DNA of 64,000 nucleotides, taken from contig CAZRML010000010.1 of NCBI GenBank assembly GCA_964601205.1, forward strand, positions 8,649 through 72,648. Reading direction: 5' to 3'. Position numbers and translations under genes: made by a program. The notes under the pieces are model-generated. The model saw only the letters and a program-made list of their open reading frames with translations. It ran no database searches and was not told the origin of the DNA. This document shows positions 1,216-64,000 of this stretch, in pieces. Within the stretch, counting starts at the first letter, position 1, and every line of letters starts with the position of its first letter. The stretch is from an uncultured Actinomycetota bacterium. Its GTDB lineage: Bacteria; Actinomycetota; Humimicrobiia; Humimicrobiales; Humimicrobiaceae.

Positions 1216-1302
1216 TGTCTGCGGCTTATTTTTTTTGCTGTTCACTCTTATGTAATTCCTTTCTAATAATCTCACATGATAACAATATAAAACCTCAAAA
1301 GC

Positions 1303-2826: not shown

Positions 2827-2943
2827 TACTAACCACTTACTTTCTATTCCAATAAACGCACCCCTGGATTTCTTTAATCCCTGTAATGCTTTTTAAATTA
2901 TTATCACCAGATATATCTTTTATCTCAAATTACTTAAAACTAT

Positions 2944-4542: not shown

Positions 4543-4569
4543 TCACCCTTAAATTCTATTTTTAAGTTT

Positions 4570-5736: not shown

Positions 5737-5928
5737 ACTTTCCCCTTCTAAAAAAGTTTTTTACAATTTTTATTTAAAACAATGAAATCCAGAATAAATT
5801 CCTGACCTTTCAACCCGTACATTTTTCCTGCAATCTATTATTCTAACCGGGCTTTTATTTACCAGAACATAAATATTCCCATATTAATAATTACAAACTT
5901 CTCCGCGACCGTTCTATCCTAAATTGAT

Positions 5929-6411: not shown

Positions 6412-6442
6412 AATATCACCTGCTATTCATATAAGTTTTTCT

Positions 6443-8137
6443 CTAAATACAATCTAACATATCACCTATTGAGGAACCCGGTGCTACCATAGGATATACG
6501 TTCTCCTCTTTTTCTATCCAGAAATCAACCAGAACTACCCTATCAATTTCAAGAGCTTTTTTGATGGCACCTTCTATTTCATCTTTTTTTGTAACCCTTA
6601 AACCGACTCCCCCATATGCCTCAATTAGTTTTACGAAATCAACACTTCCATCAATTGAGGTACTGGAATATCTCTTATTCCAGAATAACTCCTGCCACTG
6701 TCTGACCATGCCAAGATAACCATTGTTAAGAAGCATAATCTTAATATTTATTTTATTTGCAACTGCAGTAGCAAGCTCCTGGGAGACCATCTGTATGCTC
6801 CCATCACCGGCTATATCAACCACCACTTTATCCGGCATTCCTGCTTTTGCACCAATTGACGCAGGCAGACCAAAACCCATGGTTCCGAGCCCACCCGAAG
6901 TTATGAGTGTCCTTGGCCTGGTAAATTTATAAAACTGCGCTGCCCACATCTGGTTCTGGCCAACTTCTGTGCATACAATTGCATCTCCCCGGGTTAATTC
7001 ATATATTTTTTCCACAATATAAGCGGGTTTAACTCCGTCTGAATCTCTGTCGTATCTCAATGGATGATCCTCTTTTAATTTTTTAATTCTTGATAGCCAC
7101 CCTTTCCTGTCAGGCTTTCCCTTTTTGTCAGTATATTTTTCATATTCATTTTTTAAATCAGTAAGAACAACTTTTGCATCTCCTACAATAGGAATCAGGG
7201 CCCTGATATTTTTACCAATCTCTGCAGGGTCAATATCTATATGGATTATTTCCGCTTCCGGCGCAAACTCTGATAGCTTACCCGTGACTCTATCGTCAAA
7301 TCTAACCCCTACCGCGATAATGAGGTCTGTTTCTGTAAAAGCCAGATTCGCATACTTTGTCCCGTGCATTCCGGCCATGCTTAAAGATAAGGGGTCTGTT
7401 TCCGGAAAAGAGCCCATCCCCAGAAGTGAGTTTATTACCGGAATTTTACTGACTTCCACAAATTTTCGCAAAGCCTCACTTGCATTTGATAAAATTACCC
7501 CTCCACCTGAAAAAATTACAGGTTTTTTGCTCTTCGCTATTTTTTTTGCTGCTTCTTTAATCTGTTTGAGGTTACCTCTGAGAGTTGGCTTATATCCGGG
7601 TAGCTCTATAGCCACTTTAAAGTTCTCATCAATTAAATCAGTAGTCAGGTCAACGGGTATATCAACTAAAACCGGACCCGGCCTTCCGGTGGACGCGACT
7701 AAAAATGCTTCCTTTATAACCTGCGGTAAATCCCTAATATCTTTTACCAGATAATTCTGCTTGGTTATTGGAGCAGTTATGCCTGTTATATCTGCTTCCT
7801 GAAAAGCATCTGTTCCAATCAGGTTGGTTCTGACCTGTCCTGTTATAGCAACTACCGGTATTGAATCCATCTGGGCATTGGCAATTCCTGTTACCAGATT
7901 GGTCCCGCCCGGTCCTGATGTTGCTATACAAACACCGGTTTTCCCGGTTGCCCTGGCATAACCATCCGCTGCATGCACCGCTCCCTGTTCATGTCTTACC
8001 AGTATATGTCTGATATCACTTTCATATAATGCATCATACAGGGGAATGACTGCACCGCCGGGATAGCCAAATATGACCTCTACACCCTCTTGTTTTAAAC
8101 ATTTTACTATCATCTGTGCGCCACTTATTTTACTCAT
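6443..8137 (-). CDS. ilvB: acetolactate synthase large (catalytic) subunit, ThDP/FAD-dependent
   Basis: SGAQMIVKCLKQEGVEVIFGYPGG and GPGGTNLVTG are present, together with the ThDP-binding motif GDGSIQM...NN. It is 564 aa. Confidence 0.85.
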   Translation of the reverse strand: MSKISGAQMIVKCLKQEGVEVIFGYPGGAVIPLYDALYESDIRHILVRHEQGAVHAADGYARATGKTGVCIATSGPGGTNLVTGIANAQMDSIPVVAITGQVRTNLIGTDAFQEADITGITAPITKQNYLVKDIRDLPQVIKEAFLVASTGRPGPVLVDIPVDLTTDLIDENFKVAIELPGYKPTLRGNLKQIKEAAKKIAKSKKPVIFSGGGVILSNASEALRKFVEVSKIPVINSLLGMGSFPETDPLSLSMAGMHGTKYANLAFTETDLIIAVGVRFDDRVTGKLSEFAPEAEIIHIDIDPAEIGKNIRALIPIVGDAKVVLTDLKNEYEKYTDKKGKPDRKGWLSRIKKLKEDHPLRYDRDSDGVKPAYIVEKIYELTRGDAIVCTEVGQNQMWAAQFYKFTRPRTLITSGGLGTMGFGLPASIGAKAGMPDKVVVDIAGDGSIQMVSQELATAVANKINIKIMLLNNGYLGMVRQWQELFWNKRYSSTSIDGSVDFVKLIEAYGGVGLRVTKKDEIEGAIKKALEIDRVVLVDFWIEKEENVYPMVAPGSSIGDMLDCI

Positions 8138-13347: not shown

Positions 13348-16300
13348 CTAACCGTTCTTTTTGTTAATAATATTTGAACAAAATTCAGCATAATTACAGA
13401 ACTTCTTACAGCTGTTCTTGAAGTTAGCTTTAAAATTTTTATCTCTGATGTTTTTTATCTCGGCAAGAATATCCTTTTTCAGCTGTTTTATTTCATCACT
13501 ATTAACCGTAATTGATTTTTCTACCCCATCCCCCAGATAAAAAATGCATCCTTTTATATCACTTACCGGTTTACTGTAAATTTCTGATAACGCTGCTATA
13601 TAAGCTTTCATCTGGAACCCGGCAGAATTTTCGAGATTATTTTGATTTTTATTATTTTTATTTTTAGAATAAGAAGATAATTTATAATCAATAATCCTTA
13701 GCTTATTATCCGTCTTTATATCAACCCTATCAAACCTGCCAACAATATAGCAATCCTTGATCTTCCAGTAAAAAAGCTGCTCCAGCATTATTGAACTTAC
13801 TTCAGAAAAATTCCATAAATCACTGTTCAGAAAATTCTCCAGGTATTTTTCTATCTTTTTATCATCAAAATGGCCCATAACCTTTTCTTTTAAAATTTTA
13901 TTATGGAACCCGGTCAGAGTTATATTTTTTAAATACCCGTGGACTTCTTCTCCTCTGGCAAGTTGTTCGCTTTCTTTTTCAGGTATAAAATAAATATGTT
14001 TCCATCTGTATAGCAGCGGGCATTTTTTATGATCAATAATCCAGGTTAAAGGGAAAAATCTTCTGGTATTAATATTATCTTCTGGATAGCTTCCATAAGA
14101 TAATTCAAAATTAATTTTATCTACAATTTCCTGAACCCTGCTATTTTCTACCTGTGTATCCCCGGATTTTATAACCCTGTTTGCCAGAACCTTCTGATAA
14201 AGTTCCCACCGGTTCTCATCCTGTACCCTGATATTTTTACTATCTTTCTTATCAGAATTGATAAAGCTCAGGACATCTTTAAAGTTTTCATGATCTTTGT
14301 ATGATTTTTCATCGTAATTTGTTCTTATAAAATCCAGGCCTTCTTTATTTATAACCCTCAGGCTGTTACTGTTTACAATATCCTCAAAGAAAGGCATGAT
14401 TTCTTTTGGCTTAACGCTTTCACTGGCAGAAGCTAAATTATCTTCATATTCACTTGATGACAGAATGAGAATCTTCTTTGCTCTGCTGCATCCCACATAA
14501 AAAATTCTTCTTTCTTCTTCTATTTTTATATCTTTTAAAGACTCAGAAAAGCTCCTGGCACTATTAAAATCTTTTTTCCTCTTATATATGCTGTTATCTT
14601 TTCTCAGCTCTGAGGGGACCATAAATCCTCCGGACGAAATTCTTGCCTTATAATCATTTTTCCACAATCCCGGCAGGAAAACTACTTCAAATTCAAGCCC
14701 TTTAGCCGCGTGGATGCTCATTATTTTTACAGAATTCTCGCCTGAAAATTCCACGCTTTCCGGGTCATCATAATCTGTTTTCGCAACATCTTTAAGAAAA
14801 GTTATAAAGGCCCTAAGATTATTTTCTATATAACTTTTCTGAAAGTCAGAGGCCACTCTTATAATATTCTCAATATTTTTAATTTTTTTCCGGAATACTG
14901 GACCGGGACTTGATTTTAATTCATTTATTATGCCCGAATCTTCTATAATCAAGCTGATTAATTCCCTAAGCTCCAATTCTCCTGATTTACTTATATAAAG
15001 CTTCAGACTGGAAAGAAAACTGCCCAATCTTTCTTTTGTCTCTCTACTTAAATAAGTATTCTTTTTATAATCTGCTATCCCTTCAATTATATTTATACTT
15101 TCACTGGGATCCGTGTAATTTCTTTTAATAAAAAAAATATCCCTGTCGCAAATTTTATATTTTTCTGATTTAAGCAGATACACTATTGATATCTCATCAT
15201 TTATATTCTCTATAACCCTGAGCCATGAAATAATAAATAAAATCTCCGGCTCAAAGAAAAAATTCTTTCCCCCTATCAGCTCAAATTTAATACCGTTAGC
15301 TTCCAGTTCCCCGGTAATCTTTTCAAACTTTTTCCTTCTGGCAAGAATAGCCATTTGCTTTAATTTAATCCCTCCTGCCGACAGATACTTTATAATCCCT
15401 GCAATCTCCGCTGCCTCTTCCTCATGAGTTTTCTTATAATAAAATATAACCTCTGAGGGTTTACTTTTATCTTCAGACTTTAGCTCTTTTTTAAATCTTT
15501 TACTATTTGAAGAAATAACCCTGTTTATTGAGTTTATGATGTTATTCCCGGATCTGAAATTAGTGGTAAGAAAAAAATCATGCACATTACTGTTCTTAAA
15601 TTCTTCAAGCCTGTGAAAATTTAATATGTTCTCCACGCTGGCTCCCCGAAAAGAATAAATACCCTGGTCATCATCTCCCACAACCACTATTCTGTTGTTT
15701 CCGGGTTTATAAAGCATGGATAGAAGGTATGCCTGTGCTATATTGGTATCCTGGAATTCATCAACAAATATATATTCATATCTCTGCTGGTACCAGGCTC
15801 TCATTGACTTTCTCTCCCGGAGTAAAAGATAAGGCATAAATACCTGGTCGGGGTAATCTATACAATTACTTTCAATCTTCCTTCTTTCATATCGCTGATA
15901 AATAGTGAAAAGCTCTCGCTGGATATCTATTGATTTTTCTTCTTCATTTTTTAGAGCCTTACTTTTGTATCCGGAAAGAATTTTTTCATAATTATTTAGA
16001 TAATATTCAAATTCAGCCACAGATATAAGGTTGTTCTTTAAATTTTCTATGTAATTAAGTAACTTCTGAACGAATTCTCCAGCCTTTTTCCCGGGTTTTA
16101 AATACTTTAGATTGGACTCATTAAATATTTCATATAATATCTGCCAGGACTGGCTGTTATTTATAATTTTAAAATCTTTCCCTAGGCCAAACTCAAAACT
16201 GTGCTCGCTTATTATTTCATTTCCAAAAGAATTAAAGGTGAATACATTAATTCCTTCTATGTCTATGTCTTTCTTAACATTTTCCTTAATTCTTACTCTC

Positions 16301-16491
16301 ATATTCTCAGCAGCATTTCGGGTGAAAGTAAGCGCAAGTATTTTATCCGGACTGCATAACCCATCCTTTAGAATTTTTATAATATTACCGGTCAGAACCA
16401 TTGTTTTGCCGGAACCCGCACAGGCAATTATTCTTTTTATATCATCTGTGCTATTTACTATATCAAGCTGTTCTTTTGTTTCTTTAACCAT
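13348..16491 (-). CDS. addA: AddA/AdnB-like helicase-nuclease subunit (active UvrD/PcrA-type motor + C-terminal PD-(D/E)xK nuclease with Cys cluster)
   Basis: Walker A CAGSGKT is present, with motif Ia LTFTRNAAENM and motif II DEFQDTN. The C-terminal region has C-x3-C-x5-C (CKKFCNYAEFC). The likely ATG at 16491 overlaps the upstream gene's stop by 8 nt. The track's start at 16521 is a GTG. Confidence 0.65.
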   Translation of the reverse strand: MVKETKEQLDIVNSTDDIKRIIACAGSGKTMVLTGNIIKILKDGLCSPDKILALTFTRNAAENMRVRIKENVKKDIDIEGINVFTFNSFGNEIISEHSFEFGLGKDFKIINNSQSWQILYEIFNESNLKYLKPGKKAGEFVQKLLNYIENLKNNLISVAEFEYYLNNYEKILSGYKSKALKNEEEKSIDIQRELFTIYQRYERRKIESNCIDYPDQVFMPYLLLRERKSMRAWYQQRYEYIFVDEFQDTNIAQAYLLSMLYKPGNNRIVVVGDDDQGIYSFRGASVENILNFHRLEEFKNSNVHDFFLTTNFRSGNNIINSINRVISSNSKRFKKELKSEDKSKPSEVIFYYKKTHEEEAAEIAGIIKYLSAGGIKLKQMAILARRKKFEKITGELEANGIKFELIGGKNFFFEPEILFIISWLRVIENINDEISIVYLLKSEKYKICDRDIFFIKRNYTDPSESINIIEGIADYKKNTYLSRETKERLGSFLSSLKLYISKSGELELRELISLIIEDSGIINELKSSPGPVFRKKIKNIENIIRVASDFQKSYIENNLRAFITFLKDVAKTDYDDPESVEFSGENSVKIMSIHAAKGLEFEVVFLPGLWKNDYKARISSGGFMVPSELRKDNSIYKRKKDFNSARSFSESLKDIKIEEERRIFYVGCSRAKKILILSSSEYEDNLASASESVKPKEIMPFFEDIVNSNSLRVINKEGLDFIRTNYDEKSYKDHENFKDVLSFINSDKKDSKNIRVQDENRWELYQKVLANRVIKSGDTQVENSRVQEIVDKINFELSYGSYPEDNINTRRFFPLTWIIDHKKCPLLYRWKHIYFIPEKESEQLARGEEVHGYLKNITLTGFHNKILKEKVMGHFDDKKIEKYLENFLNSDLWNFSEVSSIMLEQLFYWKIKDCYIVGRFDRVDIKTDNKLRIIDYKLSSYSKNKNNKNQNNLENSAGFQMKAYIAALSEIYSKPVSDIKGCIFYLGDGVEKSITVNSDEIKQLKKDILAEIKNIRDKNFKANFKNSCKKFCNYAEFCSNIINKKNG

Positions 16492-19400
16492 AGTATTTTG
16501 GACATAAAATCTTAAATCCACAATTTAAACATGAATTATAACTTTTCGGTATGGCATTAAATTCTTCCTTCTTTATTTTAGCAATGCTCTCCCTCAGAAT
16601 ATCTTTAATTTCATTACCCTCATAATACTCATCGGCCACCACTGCCACTGGCTTCTTTAAATCTCCAGGGAAAATATATTGCATCTTTACACTCATAGAT
16701 TTAAAATCCCCGAAGTCTTTGCTCAGGCTCAGAGCCAGTCTGTACATTTTTAACTGAAGCTCTTCTCTAAGTTGCTTTTCATTATACGAAGATGAACTGG
16801 ATTTATAATCCACAAGCTCTATATTGTCTTTATCAGGAAAGTTAATCTGGTCTATCCTTCCAGTAATTTTTTCACCATCAAGACTAAAAGAAAATCCTTT
16901 CTCAACTATGGACTTATGGGGATTGGGAGGCATTTGGTTCTCAAAAAAATTTTTTAATTGTATCAGCGCTTTCTGTTTTAGATCCCTTTTTAAAAATTCA
17001 AATTCAAAATTAAACCTGTCAAATACATCCTCTATTATTTTCCTCAACCTCTCCCATTTGAAGTCTTTTTTATTTTTACTTTCAAAAAACAATTTTATTA
17101 TCTGGTGATAAATTTTCCCTATAATGAGGCTCAGGTTTTCCTCCTCCTTTAAACTAAAGTAATACTTTATCTTGTATTTAAAAGGGCATTCCCTGAAAGT
17201 ATTTATGCCACTGTAAGAAAATGATAATGGAAGTGCGCTGAAAGGGTTTTTATTATTTTTGGTAGGCTCAATAAAGCTCCACCACTCGCGGGGATTATAA
17301 AAATATTTTAAAATAATAATTTTATCCAGATAGCTATCATTTTCAACTTTTAAGTTTTTTTCTATCCTGGCAGAGGCAACCAGTGCCTTTTTTCTTACCA
17401 GCCACAAATTATTTAAATCTACATCAGACAGTATCCCTGGTTTAATTTTTTTCTTATCTTCAGGTGGCTTTTTTTTACTATTCTCTTCTTCTTTCTTTAT
17501 GTATTCATTACGCACGGAATTTTTAATTTTCTTATATTCAGGACCTAAATTTTTATAGATATCTTTTATATTCTCAAAGAAAATAGACTTCCCTCTTCCG
17601 CTTGAAGTTATATATAGATATTCTCCCGCCCTCGTGATTCCATTATAAAAAAGCCTCATTTCGTTATAAAGATGCTCTCTTTTTAGCTCTTCGGGCTCAA
17701 GAGTTTTTGCACCATTTAAATAATTAAATATCTGTACATCAAAAGCCTGGGTATAGGTAAACTTTGCAGGTAAGTAATTTTTGTTAATAAAAGGTATAAA
17801 TACGGCCCTGAATTCCAGTCCCTTGCACTGGTGAAAACTTAAGATACTGACTGAACCCTCCTGTATTATATCTTTTGTACTTTCTTCTATCTCTTCTGTA
17901 AATTTACTTTCTAAAATATAATCAATAAAATTAATATATGATTCAACATCATCGGGAGTATTATTGGCACAAAAATCTTTTACATCACTTAAAAAATCAC
18001 TTACATTACTCCACTGGTTTTTTTTATAGACCTTATTGTTGCCTCCTGTCAATAACTTAATGACACCTGCTTTTTTATTACGTACGAGCTCCAGTAAAAA
18101 ACCAAAAGCATCTTTTCTCTCCATGACCCCTGCCAATTTATAAACTTCCGAAATAAAGTCCCTGACTTTAGAAATCTCTTCATGCTCGCCATTCTTTTTA
18201 TTTCCCCGGGCACATTGAACTTTAAGATAATCCCACAGATTGCTGAAACCACCGCCACTGTTGACACTTTCCAGATAAGCTCCCTTAATCTTTTTAAAAT
18301 ATAATGGTTCCAGGTTTATTGATTCAGAGAGTACCACATTTTCCAGAAGATTATCAATTTTAGAAGTAAATTCTTTATCCATTTTATAATTAGGTTTACT
18401 GCTATTCTTATCATCCTCTGGAATTTTTCTGCCCGTATATTCTACTTTTCCCAGCGCGACAAGGAATCTTAAAAAGTTCAGCAGATATCTGACAAGCCCG
18501 TTATCAAGAATGCTTCTTGTCCCCCTTCTCAAAAAGGGAATTCCATTCTGCAACAGGGCATTTTCAATAATATGTGTCTCGTAGCCCAGCCCTTTGACAA
18601 TTATCGCCATTTCCTCAAATCTTACATCCCTGCTCAGTAATAGAAACTTAATTCTGCGACAGATGTAATTAGCTTCTTCCAGTAACGTTTGAAATTCCTT
18701 AACATGTAATTCGCCGGGGGATTTACTATAAGAAACACTGATATCTCTGGGTATTCTATTTCCAACCATGCTTATAAATTTTCTGGAGATTTCATTTATT
18801 ATGGGTATACTTCTGTAGTTCTTATTCAGGAAAAATATATTTTTAGAATCAAGACTGCTGTAAACTGATTCAAAAATATTCGTTGTAGAGCCTCTGAAAG
18901 AATAAATTGACTGGTCATTATTTCCAAAAAAAATACAGTTTGAATTTGAAATATAATTTATAATTTCAAATTGAGCCTTATTTACCTCATGAAGTTCATC
19001 AACCAGTATATATTCATAATTATCTTTATAGTAATCTCTTATTTCTTTCTGATTCTTAAGCAAGCTAACCGTTTCTTCCAGTAACATCCCGTAATTGTAC
19101 AGTTGATTTTTTTTGAGCTCTTCAACATATCTCATGTATATACCTGCCAGTTCTGAAAGCGCAGGATTTGAAAATGGTGTAAATTTCTTTAGCAGTTCTG
19201 CGGGAGTAAACAGGTTTTCCTGGGCACGAAGTATAAAATCAAATACCTCCTGGATGTAGCTATTTTCTATATAAGGATTGCGGTTTATATACCTGTATGT
19301 ATGGGAATATTTTCTTTTATCAAGTTTTTTTATAACTTCTTTAAGAAGTTTCCATTGCTGGACCGAATTTAATATTTTTATTTGTCCAAAGGGATTATCT

Positions 19401-19738
19401 CCGCTATTAATCCTTAAAGATTTATTACCCTTTGTCCCGTCACCGTATAAAAAAACTTTTGCTTCCTCTATAAAATGTGTACAAAAAGAATGAAATGTTT
19501 CTATGGGAATCTCAAATATACTACTGTTGATTAAAGAAGTCGTTTTTTCCCTGATTAATTTGGACCACCTGCGATTAAAACAAAAAACTAAAAGCTTTTC
19601 AGGATTTATCTTTCTGTCATTAATTAGATACCCGACCAGTTCTAAAAGTGTATGGGTCTTACCGGAACCGGGGGGACCAATTACCAGAAAACTGCCCCCT
19701 TTTTTCTTAATAACATCTATCAGTCTATCATCCAGCAT
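16484..19738 (-). CDS. addB: AddB/AdnA-like helicase-nuclease subunit (degenerate helicase motifs, C-terminal RecB-type nuclease with Fe-S-type Cys cluster)
   Basis: Walker A GPPGSGKT is present but motif II is degenerate (VDELHE). The C-terminus CLNCGFKILC is C-x2-C-x5-C, typical of AddB Fe-S nuclease domains. It is translationally coupled to the downstream subunit. Confidence 0.6.
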   Translation of the reverse strand: MLDDRLIDVIKKKGGSFLVIGPPGSGKTHTLLELVGYLINDRKINPEKLLVFCFNRRWSKLIREKTTSLINSSIFEIPIETFHSFCTHFIEEAKVFLYGDGTKGNKSLRINSGDNPFGQIKILNSVQQWKLLKEVIKKLDKRKYSHTYRYINRNPYIENSYIQEVFDFILRAQENLFTPAELLKKFTPFSNPALSELAGIYMRYVEELKKNQLYNYGMLLEETVSLLKNQKEIRDYYKDNYEYILVDELHEVNKAQFEIINYISNSNCIFFGNNDQSIYSFRGSTTNIFESVYSSLDSKNIFFLNKNYRSIPIINEISRKFISMVGNRIPRDISVSYSKSPGELHVKEFQTLLEEANYICRRIKFLLLSRDVRFEEMAIIVKGLGYETHIIENALLQNGIPFLRRGTRSILDNGLVRYLLNFLRFLVALGKVEYTGRKIPEDDKNSSKPNYKMDKEFTSKIDNLLENVVLSESINLEPLYFKKIKGAYLESVNSGGGFSNLWDYLKVQCARGNKKNGEHEEISKVRDFISEVYKLAGVMERKDAFGFLLELVRNKKAGVIKLLTGGNNKVYKKNQWSNVSDFLSDVKDFCANNTPDDVESYINFIDYILESKFTEEIEESTKDIIQEGSVSILSFHQCKGLEFRAVFIPFINKNYLPAKFTYTQAFDVQIFNYLNGAKTLEPEELKREHLYNEMRLFYNGITRAGEYLYITSSGRGKSIFFENIKDIYKNLGPEYKKIKNSVRNEYIKKEEENSKKKPPEDKKKIKPGILSDVDLNNLWLVRKKALVASARIEKNLKVENDSYLDKIIILKYFYNPREWWSFIEPTKNNKNPFSALPLSFSYSGINTFRECPFKYKIKYYFSLKEEENLSLIIGKIYHQIIKLFFESKNKKDFKWERLRKIIEDVFDRFNFEFEFLKRDLKQKALIQLKNFFENQMPPNPHKSIVEKGFSFSLDGEKITGRIDQINFPDKDNIELVDYKSSSSSYNEKQLREELQLKMYRLALSLSKDFGDFKSMSVKMQYIFPGDLKKPVAVVADEYYEGNEIKDILRESIAKIKKEEFNAIPKSYNSCLNCGFKILCPKYYG

Positions 19739-55630: not shown

Positions 55631-56074
55631 ATGAAAAATAGAGATATCATTATAATAATCATCCTTACCATAATTTTAGTAATAGTTATAACAGCTTCCA
55701 TACAGAAAAAGCAGGAAATAGAAGATATTTATCTCAGTAACAGCAAAGATTCCACCTTTGAGGAATTACAGTCCGGTAAATCATACAATTTCAAAAATAA
55801 CGATTCCGATATATACCTTATAATGAAAGTAAAAAATTTAAAGGAAGATGATGAAATAAAAGTGAAATGGTCCAGAATAGAAAAAGACCATAACAAAAAT
55901 GATAATTATATCACAATACAGCAAAATACTATTAATCCCGGGCAAAACGGCTCTGGTAAAATTGTAGTAATGATGTTAAAAAGAGACAACACTTATGCTG
56001 AAGGAAAATACTGTGTTGAAGCTTACTTAAACGCTGACCACAAGATAACCAAAACTTTTTCTATAGATTCCTGA
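55631..56074 (+). CDS. hypothetical membrane-anchored protein
   Basis: It has an N-terminal TM followed by a beta-rich domain. No family. Confidence 0.35.
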   Translation: MKNRDIIIIIILTIILVIVITASIQKKQEIEDIYLSNSKDSTFEELQSGKSYNFKNNDSDIYLIMKVKNLKEDDEIKVKWSRIEKDHNKNDNYITIQQNTINPGQNGSGKIVVMMLKRDNTYAEGKYCVEAYLNADHKITKTFSIDS

Positions 56075-56148: not shown

Positions 56149-57111
56149 TTAAGACTTATCCTTCTTTTTAAATTCGGACCCGACTTTGCTAAATTCGTTT
56201 TTTACTCTGTATAATATTAATTCAAGTATCCTGCTTACTACATTATCAAGATTATAATTTTCTATTATCTTAACCTTTTTTTCATCTGCCAGTTTTTCTA
56301 TGTAACTTTGAATCATAACAATTTTATCCAGATGCTTTATATATCTGTTCATGGGTCTGGAACCCTGAGTCTCAACTGTCCTTTTAGCAAAGTGTTCCTT
56401 ATGTATATCCTTATCGGGAACAGATATAACTATCTGCTGAATTATAGCCTTGGGCAGAAACTCTTTAAGGTCTAGATAACCGGGTACTACATGCGCCCCT
56501 TCTATAACAATATCAGATTTTTCTTCTACACTTCTCTTTATTATCGCTTCTATGCCCACGCTTACTGCCAGAACCTGTTCTCTGAAACCGAGGATTACCG
56601 GCTCTACACCCGATGGAGGCAGGGTTAGATTTTTATAAGCACTGTAAGAAGAGCCTCTGAGCGGCCTTATCAACTTATCAGAAACCGAAGCTCGCATAAC
56701 CTCTCTAATAGCATCGGTAGAAGCAACCCTGGTTATATTTAATCTATTTGCAAGTATAGTCGCTATTGTGGATTTCCCCACACCCGTTGAGCCGCCAATA
56801 AGTATTATAATAGGTTTTTCAAGCCTTCCAACAGATTGCCACAATAAATATCTCTCGGCATATTCCATATTAACTTTATCTTTTATAAACCTGAATGCAA
56901 TGGTTCTTAAATCACTCAGGGATAAAGAATATATCTTATTTTTTAGAAAATACTCCTGTATTTCAACAGCTATTTTATAGGCAGTGAGTATATCCAGACC
57001 TGTTACTGAAATAGATGAAGCAAGAATTCCCTTTGAAAAAGGAAGACCGCTCTTCTTATCTGATATTACAACTATTCTCGGACTTACTTCTTCTTTATTT
57101 TCTATTTCCAA
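56149..57111 (-). CDS. 2-phosphoglycerate kinase (ATP-cone + P-loop kinase, COG2074-like)
   Basis: An N-terminal ATP-cone-like region is followed by the P-loop ILIGGSTGVGKSTIA. This architecture and length match archaeal 2PGK. Confidence 0.5.
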   Translation of the reverse strand: MEIENKEEVSPRIVVISDKKSGLPFSKGILASSISVTGLDILTAYKIAVEIQEYFLKNKIYSLSLSDLRTIAFRFIKDKVNMEYAERYLLWQSVGRLEKPIIILIGGSTGVGKSTIATILANRLNITRVASTDAIREVMRASVSDKLIRPLRGSSYSAYKNLTLPPSGVEPVILGFREQVLAVSVGIEAIIKRSVEEKSDIVIEGAHVVPGYLDLKEFLPKAIIQQIVISVPDKDIHKEHFAKRTVETQGSRPMNRYIKHLDKIVMIQSYIEKLADEKKVKIIENYNLDNVVSRILELILYRVKNEFSKVGSEFKKKDKS

Positions 57112-57113
57112 GT

Positions 57114-58475
57114 TTATTTATTCTCCTTTAAAAAAAATTTTTTCAATTCTTTTTTAAAAACATTTTCGTCATCTATCATAACAGGTATATTATTCAAATA
57201 TATTATATCTTTATTATTTTTATATGCATAATCTGTCAGAACATCTACCGAGGCTGCTTTTAATTCTGAAAGTATGGTTTCGTAATTTCTACTTACCTTA
57301 AGGTCTTCTTTTAGCTTTTTTCTATCCGCGAGGTTAAAACTCATTTTTACCACCTTGCAACCATAATGCTTCTCCAGGTAATCTTTTATTTTAGATTCAA
57401 TGACTCTACTTGATGTCATTGCCACAAATATTCTTTTCCCATATATATCAGATAATGGCTCGGGTCTAAAAATTGTCTTAAAAACTGGAGCCCCTGGATT
57501 TATCTTCTTTATCTCTCTTTCCATAAAATCTATTTTATCCTTATCTGCCACCGGCTCCTCGCACATGGTTAATATTATTAAATCAGCAGACATTATCCTG
57601 TAAGTTCCGAGATACCCCACAATGCTTTCCCACTTCTGGCCTGCGCCTATTACGCATATGCAGAAATCGGTCTTCACATCCGGAACAGAGGCACCGCTGC
57701 CTTCCACTATAATCAAATCAGGATTTAGTTTCTCAGCAATACTTATGCCCTCTTTTATATTGCTCATAAATATCTTACCTCCAAAACCCCCTCCGCATCT
57801 CCTGCATCCAACAGTAGTAACTCTCCCGGTCAGCGCATCTTCTATATAGTCGGAACTTGCATGCATGCCTTTATTATTAATCTCAAGCAGATATTCTGAG
57901 TCAACATTTATATTGCCCCCTTCTATTACATGTGGTTTCGCGGGGCCACCCCTGCCCATAGCAACCACGCAGACATCAACATTCTCACTCTTAAATATTT
58001 TTGATACATATGAGCTGATTGCCGTTTTGCCGATTCTCTTTCCGGTTCCGATAATACTCACAGAAGGCTTCATGCAAATGATATCTTCCTTTTCGTAAGA
58101 AAATAAAAAATCCGGTCCCATGTAGCTGCACTTATGGTCAAGACAGAAAGAAGCTATTTTCATCCTTATAATATAATTTACCACCGGTTCATCGCTTAAG
58201 TCATAAACTATATCCGGTTTAAAATATTCAAGTGCATTCTTAAAATCTATATCAAGATCCCTGATTATATAGACCTTTTCTCCAAAAAAATCCTCCATAT
58301 CATCCAGTATTAATTTCTCGGTCCCTCCGAGAAAAATAATACCCTTAAAATTACCGGTATAGATTTTCCTGAGCATACTAACCGCATCATAGGTTACCTG
58401 GGGATAGTGTTCACCATCAATTAATGCTACGAGATTTTTACCTTTATTATTTTTTTTCTTCAATAAATTTATCAC
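57114..58475 (-). CDS. putative cyclic 2,3-diphosphoglycerate synthetase (cDPGS-like P-loop protein)
   Basis: It is 453 aa, with the double-lysine P-loop IIGTGKRIGKTAIS. It sits 3 nt upstream of the 2PGK gene. The size and architecture are as in Methanothermus cDPGS. Confidence 0.4.
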   Translation of the reverse strand: MINLLKKKNNKGKNLVALIDGEHYPQVTYDAVSMLRKIYTGNFKGIIFLGGTEKLILDDMEDFFGEKVYIIRDLDIDFKNALEYFKPDIVYDLSDEPVVNYIIRMKIASFCLDHKCSYMGPDFLFSYEKEDIICMKPSVSIIGTGKRIGKTAISSYVSKIFKSENVDVCVVAMGRGGPAKPHVIEGGNINVDSEYLLEINNKGMHASSDYIEDALTGRVTTVGCRRCGGGFGGKIFMSNIKEGISIAEKLNPDLIIVEGSGASVPDVKTDFCICVIGAGQKWESIVGYLGTYRIMSADLIILTMCEEPVADKDKIDFMEREIKKINPGAPVFKTIFRPEPLSDIYGKRIFVAMTSSRVIESKIKDYLEKHYGCKVVKMSFNLADRKKLKEDLKVSRNYETILSELKAASVDVLTDYAYKNNKDIIYLNNIPVMIDDENVFKKELKKFFLKENK

Positions 58476-59244
58476 AGAGCTTACTTTTTTCCTCTTTTCT
58501 TTTTATTCCTAAAATCTTTTCAATTTTATCGAATGGTGATCTTCTATAAATATCAATTTCCTTATCCCTTACATATATAATATTATAGCTCGGCTCAATT
58601 CTACCCCTTAATCTCAAACAGGAAACTGTTCCGGCAGTAACTACCAGCATATCTTCTACTCTCCATAGATAGGGTACGTGCTTGTGCCCACAAAGCACCA
58701 GGTCTACCCCCGCGTCAACCACCGTTTCAAGAACATCACCGGCATCATTTACAATATTCCTCTCTCTTCCTGTGTTAGGGACCGATATCAGGTGATGGTG
58801 CATGGCAAATATCTTAAAATTACCTGGATTGCTCTTGCTGAATTCATTTTTTATCCAGTCGTAATGCTCCCTTCCTATCTGACCGTTGTCAAGATCAGGC
58901 TCGCTTGAATCAGCTGCAACAATTGTAATTTTATCATTATTAAACGAAATATATCTACTGCCAAAAATATCTTCAAAATGCATATATCCTACATTTCTTG
59001 AATCATGGTTTCCCAGCTGAACCAGCAAATTTTTACACTTAATAGGTGACAGATAATTTTTTACCGTATCATATTCTCTTCTGAAACCATTGGCGGTAAG
59101 GTCTCCGGTAATTATTACCACATCGGGACCAAGTTCGTTAATTTCATCGATACATCTGGTTAACAGGCTGGGCACAAAATGTTGTTCGCCAACATGGATA
59201 TCAGATATCTGAACTATCACTGTTTCTTTTTTACTGGCTGTCAT
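58447..59244 (-). CDS. calcineurin-like metallophosphoesterase
   Basis: The MPP motifs are DIHVG, GDLTANG, GNHD, HHH and GHKH. It overlaps the next gene by 29 nt. Confidence 0.7.
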   Translation of the reverse strand: MTASKKETVIVQISDIHVGEQHFVPSLLTRCIDEINELGPDVVIITGDLTANGFRREYDTVKNYLSPIKCKNLLVQLGNHDSRNVGYMHFEDIFGSRYISFNNDKITIVAADSSEPDLDNGQIGREHYDWIKNEFSKSNPGNFKIFAMHHHLISVPNTGRERNIVNDAGDVLETVVDAGVDLVLCGHKHVPYLWRVEDMLVVTAGTVSCLRLRGRIEPSYNIIYVRDKEIDIYRRSPFDKIEKILGIKRKEEKSKLCDKFIEEKK

Positions 59245-59655
59245 TGATTCCCTTTCTTGAAATTATTTTTTAAATCCGGTTAGCTCTAATTATATATAAT
59301 TTAAATATAAAAATATGTTTCATTATCCTATTCTTTAATACAAATTATAACATGGAAGTTCATTATTGCTTTATTAAATTATCATACTTTTTAAAATCAT
59401 GTTATTCTGGCCATTTATTCCCCTTTTCCATAATCAATTATTTATCCTGCCGGAGCTACTTTTTAATTCTATAAAAAGTTAAAATAAAGTACAATACAGC
59501 ATAATTATAATAAATCTTTCCCTTACATCAGAAATCTAAAAAAATATTACAGGTTAAATTCAGTTTGAAAAACATCACCATTTGCCATATCTAATCGTTT
59601 TTTTTACTTAAAAAAGCATTTTTAAAAAAATAATTAATAAATAAATATCAACTGC

Positions 59656-59715
59656 TTGACTTCGTAAAAAGCCTGTTTTAAAATAATGAACACGAGTTTA
59701 TAAACGCGAGTTTAT
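59656..59715 (+). promoter_or_regulatory. promoter (TTGACT-17-TAAAAT) with overlapping operator-like direct repeats CGAGTTTAT x2
   Basis: TTGACT is at 59656-59661 and TAAAAT at 59679-59684. CGAGTTTAT repeats at 59693-59701 and 59707-59715, inside a near-palindrome GAGTTTATAAAC. All lie upstream of the sugar-binding protein gene. Confidence 0.35.
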
Positions 59716-59794
59716 GAAGAAAGGGGGTGAATCTAACTAACAAGCTTTTGGGCCATTACTTAAATACCAAAAACCTTAAAAAGGAGGCTAAAGA

Positions 59795-61177
59795 GTGAAA
59801 AAAGTATTTTTATGGCTAATTGTAATATCAATTATTACTGTATTTTCTGTAGTAGGCTGTGCTGCAGAAGCTGAAGAGGCTGAAGAAGCTGCTCCCGAGG
59901 AAGAAGCAGAAGAGGTAGCTGAAGAAGCTGAGCCAGCTGAAGAAGAAGAAGAAGAAGAAATGCCTGCCGAAACTATAACTTTCTGGGCTATGCCTAATGC
60001 TCCCGCCGAACCTCATCAGGCCTGGATGGAGGAGAAAGCAGCTGCCTTTAAGGAAGAGACCAATATTACTGTTGAGTTTGAGGAAGTTGGTTGGGGCGAT
60101 GTTGTATCCAAAGTATCAACAGCATGTGTAACTCCGATTTGTGATGTCTCTCAGGTGGGTACCACGCAGAATCCACAGTTTGGTGCTACCGGTGGATTGC
60201 TAAACCTTGATATAGATGAATTTGGTGGAGCTGATTCCTTCCTATCTGCAAACTTAGAATCCTGCACTCTCGATGGTAATTATTATGGTGTACCATGGTT
60301 TGCTGAATCAAGAGTTTTATTCATAAACAAGGATATGTTTGAAAAAGCAGGAGCAACAGTACCAACCACCTGGGATGAATTACTAACTGCAGGAGAGAAA
60401 ATCGTAGAAGAATACGGAGAAGGCAAAGCAATTGCTATGGCAGGAACCAATGCCTGGGATTTAATACACAACTTCGCTGCACTCTTATGGCAAAATGGAG
60501 GAAGTATATTAAATGAAGATAATACTGAAGCTACATTCAACAGCCCCGAGGGAGTTGAAGCCATGACGTACTATATAAACTGGCTGGCAAAAGGACTGGC
60601 AGATCCCTCCTGCGCTGAGTACAATCAGCCACAGGCTGACGCTGCTTTCATAGCCGGTAATGTAGCTATGGTAGTTATGGGACCCTGGAATATTTCCGGT
60701 ATCAATGCCGATAATCCTGATCTTAACTACGAAGTTGTCGAGCTTCCAGTAGGTCCGGCAGGAGTAAAAGGTGCTTTCTCTGGTGGAAGTAACCTGGTTA
60801 TATTTGCCGAGAGTGAACATAAGGAAGCAGCAAAGAAATGGATAAACTATCTCATAAGCGATGATATCCTTATTAGTTATAACCAGCCGGACATCGCCAA
60901 CATGATACCGGCAAAGCTCAGCGCTCTGGAAGATCCTTACTATCAGACCCCTGAGATGCAGACTTTTATAACAAGTCTGGGATATGCTACTGCTTATCCC
61001 CCATTAGCATCCTGGGTAGATATTGAGACTGCAATAGTCGGCGAATTCAAAAATATTATGACTGCCTATGTTGGAAAGGCCGAGGCAGGAACAGTAACTG
61101 AAGAGGAAATAGAAACTATTGCTAAGGAATACCTGGATTCAGCTGCAGCTAAAGTTAACGAGGCTTTAGCTCAATAG
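59795..61177 (+). CDS. sugar ABC transporter substrate-binding lipoprotein (family-1 SBP) with E/A-rich linker
   Basis: It has a signal peptide with a VVGC lipobox and an MalE-like fold. An AGGAGG RBS is present. Confidence 0.75.
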   Translation: MKKVFLWLIVISIITVFSVVGCAAEAEEAEEAAPEEEAEEVAEEAEPAEEEEEEEMPAETITFWAMPNAPAEPHQAWMEEKAAAFKEETNITVEFEEVGWGDVVSKVSTACVTPICDVSQVGTTQNPQFGATGGLLNLDIDEFGGADSFLSANLESCTLDGNYYGVPWFAESRVLFINKDMFEKAGATVPTTWDELLTAGEKIVEEYGEGKAIAMAGTNAWDLIHNFAALLWQNGGSILNEDNTEATFNSPEGVEAMTYYINWLAKGLADPSCAEYNQPQADAAFIAGNVAMVVMGPWNISGINADNPDLNYEVVELPVGPAGVKGAFSGGSNLVIFAESEHKEAAKKWINYLISDDILISYNQPDIANMIPAKLSALEDPYYQTPEMQTFITSLGYATAYPPLASWVDIETAIVGEFKNIMTAYVGKAEAGTVTEEEIETIAKEYLDSAAAKVNEALAQ

Positions 61178-61310
61178 ATTATATTTTTTCTATTTCAGGA
61201 CAGGTAATCTTTTTGAAGTGAGGAAGCAGTTAATTGCCAAAAGTGAAAAACTGTTTCCTCACTTCTTTAAAACGCCTATAATTCAAGTATAAGGATAAGA
61301 GGAAGTATTT

Positions 61311-62258
61311 ATGAAAAATACCAGAAGTATGTTAGGTTCCATATCCAGAGTAATGGGCAATATAAGAAGATACAGGATTGCCTATTATTTACTTATTCCT
61401 GCTCTCATCCTTATGTTATTGGTTCACTTTATTCCTATGATATGGGGAATTACTATTAGCTTTCTTGACTTTGACGTACACACCATCAATGATTGGAGCA
61501 AGGCTACTTTTATAGGCTTAGATAATTATATAAACGGTTTGAACCCCATTACTACTATAGGAGAACGCTTCCTGCGTTCCTTATGGAATGTAACTTTCTA
61601 TGCAATAGTGGTCCTCTCTCTGGGTTATCTTATTGCCATGGGGGTAGCTCTGCTTTTAAATCGGAAATTTAAGGGAAGGACAATCGTTAGAGGTTTAATA
61701 CTTTTACCTTATATTATTCCAGACACAGTAGCTTTCGCGGTCTGGCGGTTTATGTTCCAGAGCAGGATAGGTATAGTGAATAAATACCTGCTGGACTGGG
61801 GCTGGATTAAAGAACCAACACTCTGGTTAATCGGCGATAAGTCCATTTATGCTGTGATGATAGCCAGTATCTGGAAAGGATGGCCTTTTACCTGTTTAAT
61901 GCTGCTGGCCGGATTGCAAAGCATTCCAGATGATTTGTATGATGCAGCCAAGATTGATGGCGCTTCTGCCTGGCAACAATTTAAATCTATTACCTTCCCT
62001 CTTCTTATCCCCGTTACTACTGTACTCTTACTCTTATCCACCATATGGACTTTCTATGCCTTTAATCAGTTTTATGTAATGCTGGGTTCAGACCCGGGAT
62101 ATCAAGCAGATGTTCCCTCTACTCTTATTCTAAGAGAGGCTTTTACCTCCCTGCACTATGGAATTGGTTCAGCTATGTCAGTAATCCTGATGCTAATTAT
62201 GGTAGTCTTTTCTATACTTTATATTAAAAGAATCAAGCCCGGGGAAGAGATTTCATGA
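61311..62258 (+). CDS. sugar ABC transporter permease (MalF/UgpA-like)
   Basis: It has 6 TM and an EAA loop (AAKIDGASAWQQFKSITFP). Confidence 0.8.
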   Translation: MKNTRSMLGSISRVMGNIRRYRIAYYLLIPALILMLLVHFIPMIWGITISFLDFDVHTINDWSKATFIGLDNYINGLNPITTIGERFLRSLWNVTFYAIVVLSLGYLIAMGVALLLNRKFKGRTIVRGLILLPYIIPDTVAFAVWRFMFQSRIGIVNKYLLDWGWIKEPTLWLIGDKSIYAVMIASIWKGWPFTCLMLLAGLQSIPDDLYDAAKIDGASAWQQFKSITFPLLIPVTTVLLLLSTIWTFYAFNQFYVMLGSDPGYQADVPSTLILREAFTSLHYGIGSAMSVILMLIMVVFSILYIKRIKPGEEIS

Positions 62259-63133
62259 TGAATACCAGAATAAAAAAAATTATAAAAAGGGTATTCTTTT
62301 ACCTTACTATAGCACTGGTCCTGGCATGGGTGCTTATGCCCTTCTTCTGGATGGTCTCCGGTTCGTTTAAATCCACATTAGAAATCCAGGCTTCGGATAT
62401 TAAGACAGCGGGCCAGGAACCCACCTGGATCCCCCGCCGTCCTACTTTAGAGAACTATCTAACCGTAAATAAAGTGGTAAAAATAGCAGATTATTTTAAA
62501 AACAGTGTGATAATAAGTCTGGGAACTATGATTTTTTGTCTTATTATTGCCGTTCTGGCCGGATACTCCATCTCCCGTTTCAGGTTCCCCGGTAGATCAC
62601 CCTACACTGTAGCAGTATTGTCTACCCAGATGTTTCCAGGAATTCTCTTCCTCATTCCTTATGCTGTAATGTTTATCGGTGTAACCAGATTAACAGGTCT
62701 TCCTATGAGAAATACATACTGGGGAATGATTTTTACCTACACATCTTTTGCCCTTCCTTTTTCCATCTGGATGTTGAGGGGTTACTTTAACACTATCCCC
62801 AGAGAGATAGATGAACAGGCTCAAATTGATGGATGCAACAAAATAGGGGCTCTTTTTAGAGTCATTATTCCTCTTGCTAAACCAGGTCTTATCGCTGTCG
62901 GTATATATGGATTTATGATGGCCTGGGGCGAGATATTATTCGCTTCCGTCCTTACAGGAAAAGACACCACTACACTGGCTATCGGCATTTTGAGATACAT
63001 CACTACTCAAGAAAACCGATGGGGTGGAATGATGGCCGCCTGCGTGTTAACATCTCTTCCCGTACTGGCATTTTTTACCCTGTTACAGAAACATATGATC
63101 AGCGGTCTGACATCTGGAGCATTAAAAGAATAA
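62255..63133 (+). CDS. sugar ABC transporter permease (MalG/UgpE-like)
   Basis: The EAA loop reads EQAQIDGCNKIGALFRVIIPLAKP. Its start overlaps the upstream stop by 4 nt. Confidence 0.8.
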   Translation: MMNTRIKKIIKRVFFYLTIALVLAWVLMPFFWMVSGSFKSTLEIQASDIKTAGQEPTWIPRRPTLENYLTVNKVVKIADYFKNSVIISLGTMIFCLIIAVLAGYSISRFRFPGRSPYTVAVLSTQMFPGILFLIPYAVMFIGVTRLTGLPMRNTYWGMIFTYTSFALPFSIWMLRGYFNTIPREIDEQAQIDGCNKIGALFRVIIPLAKPGLIAVGIYGFMMAWGEILFASVLTGKDTTTLAIGILRYITTQENRWGGMMAACVLTSLPVLAFFTLLQKHMISGLTSGALKE

Positions 63134-63322
63134 CCTGCAACTTATAATATGCTTGAATTGTGGAGTTTACGCCGGGCCGAATCCCCGACCGAAGAGAGTG
63201 GTCATCTGGGAAATACCATGAAGTTTTCTAAATTTATTACTGCGACCATACAAAATATATTTTTTAAGTACTCGCCTAGATTTTAAAAAGGATATGATTT
63301 AATACTTATAAAAAGGAGCAAA

Positions 63323-64000
63323 ATGAAAAAAATAGGGAAAGTCAGTCCATTTTTAATTGCAATCTTTACTGCAGCATTTACTATTTTTTGCTTTATTATT
63401 TTTTGTATATATCCAGCTTCCCTTGCAGCCGACCAGCCAGGGGGAATGAATACAAAATTAATAAAGGCAGACCGGATAAATATAGACGGACTTATAGAGG
63501 AAGAAGAGTGGGGCGAGGCCATTCCCAATTATCTTAATCAGAATGAGCAGGTTGTAACAGGGAAGTCAAAGTGGAGCGGTCTGGATGACCTGAGTGCTAC
63601 TATATGGGTAATGTGGGATGAAGAAAACTTATATCTGGGAGCAGTAGTAAGGGATGATTTTCCCCTGGTCAATAACTATGAAGGCACAGACCTATACAAA
63701 GGAGATTCTATTGAGCTTTATATCGGTTTTGAGCCTGAGGAATCGGGAACTTCCTATTCTCCTTATGATTTTCAATTAGGATTTGCTCCTGCAGATAAAA
63801 GTGAAAAGCCAGCCTCCTGGATCTGGTCACAGACCAGCAAAGGAGGAGTTAGAGATGCCCCGGTGGAAGGAATAGAAATAGGAGTAGGAAAAACTGATTT
63901 TCCTGGCTATAGCCTGGAAGTAAAGATTCCTTTGACTAATTTAGGCGAGATTGCTCTTAAGGTGCCACAGCGAGTTCGTTTTGACCTGGCAGTAGACGAT
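63323..64000 (+). CDS. secreted CBM9/DOMON-like carbohydrate-binding protein, 3' end truncated by window
   Basis: ATG 63323 follows AAAGGAG. A signal peptide is present, then motifs LIKADRINIDGLIEEEEWGEA, WDEENLYLGAVVRDD and GDSIELY, typical of CBM9-type modules. There is no stop before the window end. Confidence 0.5.
   Translation, partial: MKKIGKVSPFLIAIFTAAFTIFCFIIFCIYPASLAADQPGGMNTKLIKADRINIDGLIEEEEWGEAIPNYLNQNEQVVTGKSKWSGLDDLSATIWVMWDEENLYLGAVVRDDFPLVNNYEGTDLYKGDSIELYIGFEPEESGTSYSPYDFQLGFAPADKSEKPASWIWSQTSKGGVRDAPVEGIEIGVGKTDFPGYSLEVKIPLTNLGEIALKVPQRVRFDLAVDD

Follow-up and report, generated by a model that had tools for sequence, protein, structure and literature searches.

A predicted three-gene operon for synthesis and breakdown of cyclic 2,3-diphosphoglycerate in Candidatus Humimicrobiaceae

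In a 64,000-nt stretch of actinobacterial DNA (the whole of which is called the window here) we examined the operon at positions 56149-59244 of the minus strand, in which genes for a metallophosphoesterase (MPE), a cyclic 2,3-diphosphoglycerate (cDPG) synthetase (CpgS) and a 2-phosphoglycerate kinase (2PGK) follow one another. Our comparisons indicate that these three genes of Candidatus Humimicrobiaceae probably encode a cycle of cDPG synthesis and breakdown, in which the MPE would hydrolyse either cDPG or its precursor 2,3-diphosphoglycerate (2,3-DPG). An earlier note on this DNA had described three co-directional, tightly coupled genes, and all three open reading frames (ORFs) were found where it had placed them:

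58447-59244, minus strand: MPE gene, 265 residues, ATG start; first gene of the operon, encoding a candidate cDPG or 2,3-DPG hydrolase
57114-58475, minus strand: CpgS gene, 453 residues, GTG start; second gene
56149-57111, minus strand: 2PGK gene, 320 residues, TTG start; third gene
58447-58475, minus strand: 29-nt overlap of the end of the MPE gene with the GTG start of the CpgS gene, read from the sequence
57123-57128, minus strand: AAGGAG Shine-Dalgarno sequence of the 2PGK TTG start, inside the last CpgS codons, read from the sequence
59245-59794, no strand: divergent intergenic region of 550 nt 5' of the operon, presumed to be the promoter region

The 29-nt overlap, which had been noticed before and was confirmed here, suggests translational coupling of MPE and CpgS, and its geometry is repeated in related loci (in locus L001 of the survey described below, the MPE ends at 6026 plus the stop codon and CpgS starts at 6001). 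The GTG start of CpgS is supported by its N-terminal peptide MINLLKKK, which is conserved in homologues. The second junction, previously read as a 3-nt overlap, is actually a gap of 2 nt between the CpgS TAA stop (57116-57114) and the 2PGK TTG start (57111); the tight coupling of the three genes nevertheless stands because of the 29-nt overlap and the internal Shine-Dalgarno sequence at this short gap. On inspection of the sequence, a ribosome-binding site, GAAAGGGAA, lies about 5 nt ahead of the MPE ATG.

The two biosynthetic enzymes

Judged by its sequence, the 453-residue protein is a cDPG synthetase and a clear orthologue of the archaeal enzyme. A phmmer comparison with M. fervidus cDPG synthetase (PDB 8ork) gave E 1.3e-119, with residues 12-437 aligned to residues 4-437 of the chain, and 8ork/8oru were the top matches in the PDB sequence search, which places the protein among cDPG synthetases, as had been proposed, and not among unrelated GTPases or kinases. 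The two enzymes are 46% identical from end to end, and the similarity takes in the unique N-terminal domain (about 127 residues). Another solved cDPG synthetase chain, 9sxb_A (436 residues, of different sequence), matched the window protein at E 1e-107. Pfam and NCBIfam scans returned nothing useful for this protein; the zero Pfam matches are explained by the Pfam copy used, which was older than PF27272 (CpgS_N), the family carried by close CpgS homologues. The double-lysine P-loop to which the earlier note had drawn attention, GTGKRIGKT, is present at residues 143-151 and conforms to the Walker A pattern GxxGxGK[T/S]; each of its nine residues is invariant in the 11-sequence alignment described next.

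Published ligand residues were mapped through an alignment of 11 sequences (the window CpgS, nine homologues and the M. fervidus enzyme). In the latter, 2,3-DPG is bound by E45 and K46 (partner subunit), K145 and R146, Mg2+ by T150 and D208, and ATP by K149, E305, T353, E404 and K406 (De Rose et al., 2023, PMC10690619). Eleven of the 12 published ligands are identical in the window protein (E53, K54, K146, R147, K150, T151, D209, E306, T354, E404 and K406), and all eleven are invariant over the alignment. The twelfth, given as P335 in PMC10690619, is F at that number, both in the alignment and in the solved chain, where prolines occupy 337 and 339; the surrounding FRPxP motif is conserved and the other listed residues agree, so that P335 may be a typographical error. 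With the 2,3-DPG-binding and catalytic residues all conserved, the window CpgS would catalyse the same reaction as the M. fervidus enzyme.

By the same kind of evidence, the 320-residue protein is probably a 2PGK orthologous to the archaeal enzyme. With 300.5 bits (E 1.4e-89), its residues 13-310 match positions 5-299 of the 306 in NCBIfam PRK04220, so that the C-terminal region is present and the earlier assignment to 2PGK is supported; the score is below the equivalog cutoff of that model, and related kinase models score far lower (PRK12338, 146 bits; PRK12339, 94 bits). Adjacency to CpgS in more than 45 loci further supports the assignment. As to the ATP-cone/P-loop architecture that had been ascribed to this protein, the P-loop is clear (GGSTGVGKST), whereas the ATP-cone match (Pfam PF03477; residues 14-92, profile 2-83 of 88) is weak and below cutoff (E 0.0063; 17.5 bits against 25.8). 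The Thermococcus barophilus 2PGK that adjoins the CpgS of that organism is 40% identical to the window protein, and its ATP-cone match is unmarked. A 393-residue 2PGK homologue in locus L053 (4808-5989) carries two tandem N-terminal ATP-cone-like domains ahead of the kinase domain.

Because 2PGK alone yields 2,3-DPG, a different end product or a non-storage role might be considered, with 2,3-DPG acting as a phosphoglycerate mutase cofactor, a small-molecule signal or a defence nucleotide, and the signal idea had indeed been raised in the earlier note. We consider this very improbable given that the 2,3-DPG-binding and catalytic residues of CpgS are all conserved, that the neighbourhood consists of housekeeping genes, and that PADLOC gave no significant match (VakA, E 1e-3, on the P-loop only; PDC-S10, E 2e-6, on the generic MPE domain). 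A defence or signalling reading was rejected on these weak and generic matches, and the suggested nucleotide-like signal found no support, the model for cAMP phosphodiesterase also lying far under its cutoff on the MPE.

The metallophosphoesterase and its linkage to cDPG genes

Sequence comparison identifies the first gene product as a bona fide metallophosphoesterase of a distinct, cDPG-linked subfamily. It matches Pfam Metallophos (PF00149) above cutoff (E 1.6e-17), and the superfamily motifs D15-x-H17, G47-D48, G78-N79-H80-D81, H149-H151 and G186-H187-K188-H189 are invariant in 18 homologues. Also invariant are the subfamily-specific motifs EPDLDxG, TGRER, DAGD and RxRG, which are missing from Rv0805. 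We define the subfamily by GNHDxRNVG, (E/I)PD(L/x)xxG, TGRER, DAGDVL and GHKHVP together with adjacency to CpgS and 2PGK; this signature is invariant or near-invariant in bacterial members and recurs in the N-terminal halves of the archaeal double MPEs described below. An AF2 model (pLDDT 82.5) confirmed the metallophosphoesterase fold, with two of the subfamily motifs falling in low-confidence, probably mobile loops, and the invariant arginines and flexible signature loops of the model may be compatible with a polyanionic substrate. Regarding the substrate, the fold search returned only generic MPE relatives: the nearest solved ones by sequence and fold are GpdQ and Rv0805 (16-21% identity), the top fold matches also including purple acid phosphatases. 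The protein has no evident membrane segment and appears to be soluble and cytoplasmic. In one homologue, P0201, a 364-residue "metallophosphoesterase", a stretch of about 100 residues is repeated exactly within the protein; P0201 was rejected as a real fusion, the internal duplication being probably an artefact of assembly or gene calling.

Gene linkage was surveyed in the best 80 of at least 564 species-representative genome loci encoding CpgS relatives, with 6 kb flanks. Among Actinomycetota-type loci, an MPE lies directly upstream of CpgS in 43 of 44, the exception (L055) being a contig that ends 218 nt upstream of CpgS, and 2PGK follows CpgS in 42 of the 43 MPE-bearing loci, the exception (L030) being a contig that ends inside CpgS. 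The order MPE-CpgS-2PGK spans Humimicrobiia, Coriobacteriia, Thermoleophilia and Gaiellales. The same order was found on all three long contigs that carry more distant MPE homologues (52-58% identity) and belong to Ca. Aquicultor, Ca. Hakubella and a Firmicutes-labelled metagenome-assembled genome (MAG). In each Humimicrobiia locus the MPE is the better conserved of the two proteins (L002-L032: MPE 72-91%, CpgS 56-79%). Furthermore, the triad occupies two different conserved chromosomal settings, upstream of a zinc-ribbon/membrane-protein/xseA block in Humimicrobiia, the window included, and between thrB and transaldolase-rho-rpmE in other classes, which indicates that it persists as a unit with long vertical inheritance in each lineage. 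Comparative genomics thus shows that this MPE subfamily belongs functionally with CpgS and 2PGK.

Beyond these loci, neither MPE nor 2PGK was seen in any of four Bacillota loci (of which L036 has only 336 nt upstream), and no other hydrolase was found beside the MPE-less CpgS genes of Bacillota, Altiarchaeota, Thermoplasmatota, Methanolliviera and Methanobrevibacter. In two Bacillota MAGs (L054, 5035-11213; L037, 40-5927), the CpgS homologue, with no 2PGK or MPE beside it, lies between a regulator of GntR/UTRA type and the three genes of an ABC importer (for a binding protein, a fused permease and an ATPase). This context could indicate that cDPG, or another phosphorylated acid related to it, is taken up and catabolised, perhaps by way of a reversible CpgS reaction.

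The MPE subfamily profile was also searched against 1.84 billion representative proteins. Prominent among the best of the 314 matches at E <= 1e-30 were proteins of about 500 residues that matched in two stretches (archaeal examples inspected: P0267-P0276, P0280, P0285 and P0416). The named members of their clusters belong to Thermococcus (T. barophilus and other species), Promethearchaeota, Hermodarchaeota and one Acidobacteria-labelled MAG. The N-terminal half of these double MPEs retains GNHDxRNVG, TGRER, DAGDVL and GHxH, whereas the C-terminal half lacks DxH, GNHD and GHxH while keeping fold-level similarity and 30% identity to the window MPE; from its sequence, this half resembles a pseudo-enzyme domain, one that could stand in for the second subunit of a homodimer. 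In the complete genome of T. barophilus MP (L087), CpgS, 2PGK, a CBS-domain protein and a double MPE follow one another on one strand, and a Promethearchaeota MAG has a double MPE directly beside a convergent 2PGK-CpgS pair, with tblastn identities to the window CpgS, 2PGK and MPE of 46, 40 and 41% in the former and 43, 35 and 32% in the latter. Adjacency of the double MPE to CpgS and 2PGK was observed in these two of five archaeal loci; the linkage of MPE to cDPG genes is therefore recurrent, not universal. Since it turns up in two phyla of archaea, where the MPE architecture and the order of the genes are not those of the window, a chance association with the cDPG genes is very unlikely.

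A cDPG gene cluster of Thermococcales has been reported in Pyrococcus yayanosii (PYCH_14390-400; PMC4890121). The Thermococcales arrangement resembles the window in that CpgS adjoins 2PGK and that T. barophilus has, after these two, an MPE with the same signature and from the same subfamily (41% identity); it differs in that this MPE is a tandem duplication of about 500 residues with a degenerate C-terminal half, and in the order CpgS-2PGK-CBS-MPE as against MPE-CpgS-2PGK. CBS-domain proteins of 132-135 residues are paired with the double MPE in three of the five archaeal loci (L087, 5588-7524; L090, 5514-7545; L091, 5564-7500), being co-directional with it in T. barophilus and divergent in L090 and L091, and CBS proteins also stand after 2PGK in the Thermoplasmatota locus L077 and downstream of CpgS in L053. 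Regulation of the pathway through adenylate sensing is a possible function of these proteins.

These patterns bear directly on whether the MPE is instead an ordinary 3',5'-cAMP or cyclic-nucleotide phosphodiesterase that is co-located with the other two genes without sharing their pathway. JGI annotates it as CpdA/Icc, its best PDB sequence match is Rv0805, and Rv0805, CpdA/Icc and GpdQ have in common with it the fold and all five metal-binding motifs. At 16-21% identity, however, these enzymes are distant, and the context of the window MPE is one of cDPG genes, not of cyclic-nucleotide signalling. The CpdA/Icc annotation is unsupported, as the cAMP phosphodiesterase model NCBIfam PRK11148 reached only 34.1 bits against a cutoff of 225, and membership of the CpdA family was rejected on that ground; the SpdA model (2',3'-cNMP phosphodiesterase) scored 39.4 against 400. 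Such an enzyme would also leave unexplained the invariant motifs not found in Rv0805, the 29-nt gene overlap with CpgS, the persistence of the linkage through five or more actinobacterial classes and in both chromosomal settings, and its recurrence in Thermococcus and a Promethearchaeota MAG with another domain architecture and gene order. Taken together, these observations make a coincidental cyclic-nucleotide phosphodiesterase highly unlikely, and the inference of a turnover cycle that the earlier note had drawn from the attached phosphoesterase is strengthened by the Actinomycetota-type, Aquicultor, Hakubella, T. barophilus and Promethearchaeota loci.

Distribution, origin and surroundings of the operon

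The M. fervidus pathway (8ORK/8ORU; PMC10690619) and the window have both biosynthetic enzymes in common, at the level of similarity described above. They differ in their hosts, the one here being an actinobacterium of about 34% guanine plus cytosine (GC) that is neither hyperthermophile nor methanogen, and in arrangement, since the window genes form one operon with the MPE whereas in the Methanobacteriales loci surveyed CpgS stands without 2PGK or MPE within 6 kb. The CpgS family comprised 6,473 clusters at E <= 1e-10 among 8,000 candidates scored; it carries PF27272, and many clusters are already named "2,3-diphosphoglycerate synthetase" (NCBI) or "cyclic 2,3-diphosphoglycerate synthetase" (JGI). 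The best 80 of the genomes encoding CpgS relatives include several Actinomycetota classes, Bacillota and many mesophilic Methanobrevibacter and Methanobacterium, together with one Altiarchaeota, one Thermoplasmatota and one Methanolliviera genome. With at least 564 genomes, mesophilic Methanobrevibacter among them, CpgS is not rare, nor is it confined to hyperthermophiles.

In a neighbour-joining tree built from 84 CpgS sequences (midpoint root, sample biased toward the query), bacterial sequences fell into several deep clades and those of Methanobacteriales into a compact one; the Humimicrobiia clade was not nested within methanogens. Having no outgroup and a query-biased sample, the tree does not decide the direction of transfer between domains. 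The label "archaeal-type" that the earlier note had given the pathway is thus fair as to where the pathway was discovered, whereas an archaeal origin is not demonstrated, given the several deep bacterial clades and the unrootable tree. A recent import from archaea that supplies a thermoprotectant, with the MPE as an incidental passenger, would accord with the discovery of the pathway in hyperthermophilic methanogens and with the presence of the triad in Ca. Hakubella thermalkaliphila, thermophilic by name. The IVYWREL growth-temperature estimate over 52 window ORFs, about 57 C, leaves room for some thermophily as well; the estimate is crude, inflated by AT bias and far under hyperthermophile values. 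We nevertheless find an import improbable: the closest archaeal CpgS is only 43-47% identical to the window protein, several deep bacterial clades lie outside the methanogen clade, lineage-specific conserved synteny implies long vertical inheritance, the GC content of the operon (0.34-0.36) is the same as that of its surroundings, and CpgS is common in mesophilic rumen Methanobrevibacter.

The claim that the system was not described in bacteria holds in part. The genes are automatically annotated by JGI and NCBI as cDPG synthase and 2PGK and PF27272 exists, whereas no paper on a bacterial cDPG system or on the MPE partner was found in the literature searched, and the papers found on Humimicrobiia, Aquicultoria and Hakubella make no mention of the pathway; a 2005 comparative-genomics paper had placed COG2074 (2PGK) in Thermus and Deinococcus. 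Already known, then, are both biosynthetic enzymes and, via annotation, their presence in bacterial MAGs. What appears to be new is the pathway as a stable, vertically inherited trait of whole actinobacterial classes, with a dedicated and highly conserved phosphoesterase that has relatives beside CpgS and 2PGK in archaea too.

As for the host, window proteins share 90%-identity clusters with proteins of Candidatus Humimicrobiaceae and Candidatus Hydromicrobium MAGs (Actinomycetota, class Humimicrobiia), and the closest species-representative genome locus is L001, an Actinomycetota MAG at 95-97% amino-acid identity. The DNA is low-GC and bacterial, as had been stated: GC ranges from 0.31 to 0.42 over the window, and the neighbours are bacterial (XseA, an AddAB-like pair and an ABC transporter). 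On the 3' side of the operon lie an opposite-strand 147-residue protein, a zinc-ribbon protein, two small ORFs with no Pfam match and XseA, and on the 5' side, beyond the 550-nt gap, a divergent ABC sugar transporter. The operon unit is the three genes, and the flanking genes are functionally unrelated to it. Promoter-like sites were not above expectation (27 against 19.6 +/- 4.5 in shuffled sequence), and the promoter was not located; no terminator-like site was found, no Rfam family matched the 550-nt upstream region at E <= 1, and a hairpin in the 74-nt convergent gap was not significant (z = -1.6).

The 147-residue protein (55631-56074, plus strand) has an N-terminal membrane anchor and no Pfam match, and is kept on the opposite strand directly 3' of 2PGK in most Humimicrobiia loci at 25-90% identity. 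Positions 1-8000 and 60001-64000 of the window have a GC of 0.39-0.42 as against 0.31-0.36 elsewhere, and the second of these stretches contains the ABC sugar transporter, which adjoins the triad only in the closest relative, L001, and may be a recent insertion or transfer. Its solute-binding protein (59795-61177, plus strand) has a long acidic low-complexity linker, AEEAEEAAPEEEAEEVAEEAEPAEEEEEEE, after a lipoprotein-like signal sequence. At 13348-19738 on the minus strand, two overlapping ORFs of 1057 and 1084 residues, each with a UvrD-type helicase and a C-terminal PD-(D/E)XK nuclease, form an ordinary AddAB/AdnAB-type helicase-nuclease.

A putative cDPG cycle and its meaning

In the cycle that we consider probable, 2PGK would, by orthology, convert 2-phosphoglycerate and ATP into 2,3-DPG, and CpgS, also by orthology, would then spend another ATP on joining the 2- and 3-phosphates of this product into a ring, the cyclic pyrophosphate cDPG, so that ADP and Pi are released; this mechanism has been solved for the M. 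fervidus enzyme (PMC10690619). The binuclear metal centre of the MPE would most likely open the phosphoanhydride of cDPG to give back 2,3-DPG; alternatively, it would remove phosphate from 2,3-DPG, and either reaction would return carbon and phosphate to glycolysis or gluconeogenesis. Metallophosphoesterases include hydrolases of pyrophosphate bonds, for example LpxH and ApaH. In such a cycle, cDPG would be a dynamically turned-over anionic solute and a reserve of phosphate, energy and carbon, not a hyperthermophile-specific thermoprotectant. The proposed role as a reserve of carbon, phosphate or energy would fit a pattern known from storage systems, in which synthesis and breakdown are encoded together, as in ppk-ppx and the glg (glycogen) operon. 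Speculatively, the ATP-cone of 2PGK and the archaeal CBS proteins are candidate adenylate sensors that could avert a futile cycle.

Several points weigh against this cycle. The bacterial members of the pathway are known from sequence alone, and cDPG is unreported from bacteria, De Rose et al. (2023) calling it exclusive to hyperthermophilic methanogens (PMC10690619). The substrate of the MPE is deduced from gene linkage and motif conservation only, and its nearest characterised relatives, Rv0805 and GpdQ, are phosphodiesterases at the low identity given above. Linkage itself has limits: no MPE lies within 6 kb in any of the 31 archaeal CpgS loci of the survey (nearly all from Methanobacteriales, the order that includes known cDPG producers), so the MPE is not a universal component of the pathway, and CpgS is absent within 6 kb from three of the five archaeal double-MPE loci sampled, two of which keep the small CBS partner. 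The 2PGK score of 300 bits is under the 343-bit equivalog cutoff of PRK04220, which is consistent with a divergent bacterial orthologue. If synthesis and hydrolysis were co-expressed with no regulation, ATP would be consumed in a futile cycle, and the locus revealed no regulator. Finally, the cDPG hydrolase activity of M. thermautotrophicus is membrane-bound (PMC1224877), whereas the window MPE looks soluble.

That activity, inhibited by K+ and Pi and given no gene name in the review (Roberts 2005, PMC1224877), catalyses the very reaction proposed for the MPE, from cDPG to 2,3-DPG with return of carbon and phosphate. Besides its attachment to the membrane, it differs in that Methanobacteriales CpgS loci have no nearby MPE; if our hypothesis for the MPE is right, the window protein and the M. 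thermautotrophicus hydrolase are probably non-orthologous.

The same pathway could also operate with the MPE as a 2,3-DPG phosphatase (yielding 3-phosphoglycerate or 2-phosphoglycerate and Pi) or as a house-cleaning enzyme for a dead-end pyrophosphorylated intermediate, the cDPG ring being opened by reversal of CpgS or by another enzyme. The M. fervidus cDPG synthetase was reported to be reversible (Roberts 2005, PMC1224877), so that ring opening does not strictly require an enzyme of its own; metallophosphoesterases include phosphomonoesterases, with purple acid phosphatases among the top fold matches of the MPE; and gene linkage fits a phosphatase as well as it fits a hydrolase of cDPG. The closest sequence and fold relatives, Rv0805 and GpdQ, are on the other hand diesterases acting on cyclic or bridging phosphates, and we regard this version of the pathway as rather unlikely, even though the computed evidence as such fits cDPG and 2,3-DPG alike as substrate of the MPE.

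Returning to the MPE as a hydrolase of cDPG, we put forward, more tentatively than the cycle itself, that the TGRER-type MPE could be the long-missing cDPG hydrolase and that the three enzymes could form an ancient cycle, vertically inherited in deep-branching Actinomycetota and present also in Thermococcales and Asgard archaea, with cDPG as a widespread buffer. The conserved MPE is a concrete and testable candidate for the catabolic step, which in the review is so far an activity with no named gene. Thermococcus barophilus, whose double MPE belongs to the same subfamily, is cultivable and genetically tractable. cDPG is under development as an industrial extremolyte; if the cycle is real, CpgS and 2PGK from mesophilic or moderately thermophilic bacteria could ease its enzymatic production, and producer strains might need the hydrolase removed.

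Recent papers hold cDPG to be exclusive to hyperthermophilic methanogens (PMC10690619, PMC12136491). If our reading is correct, whole classes of uncultured Actinomycetota possess the entire pathway, passed on vertically and with its catalytic residues intact, which would overturn that assumed distribution and would shift the presumed role of cDPG away from pure thermoprotection. On the more tentative view of an ancient three-enzyme cycle, cDPG could be in wide use among anaerobic prokaryotes of the subsurface as a buffer of phosphate, energy and osmotic state.

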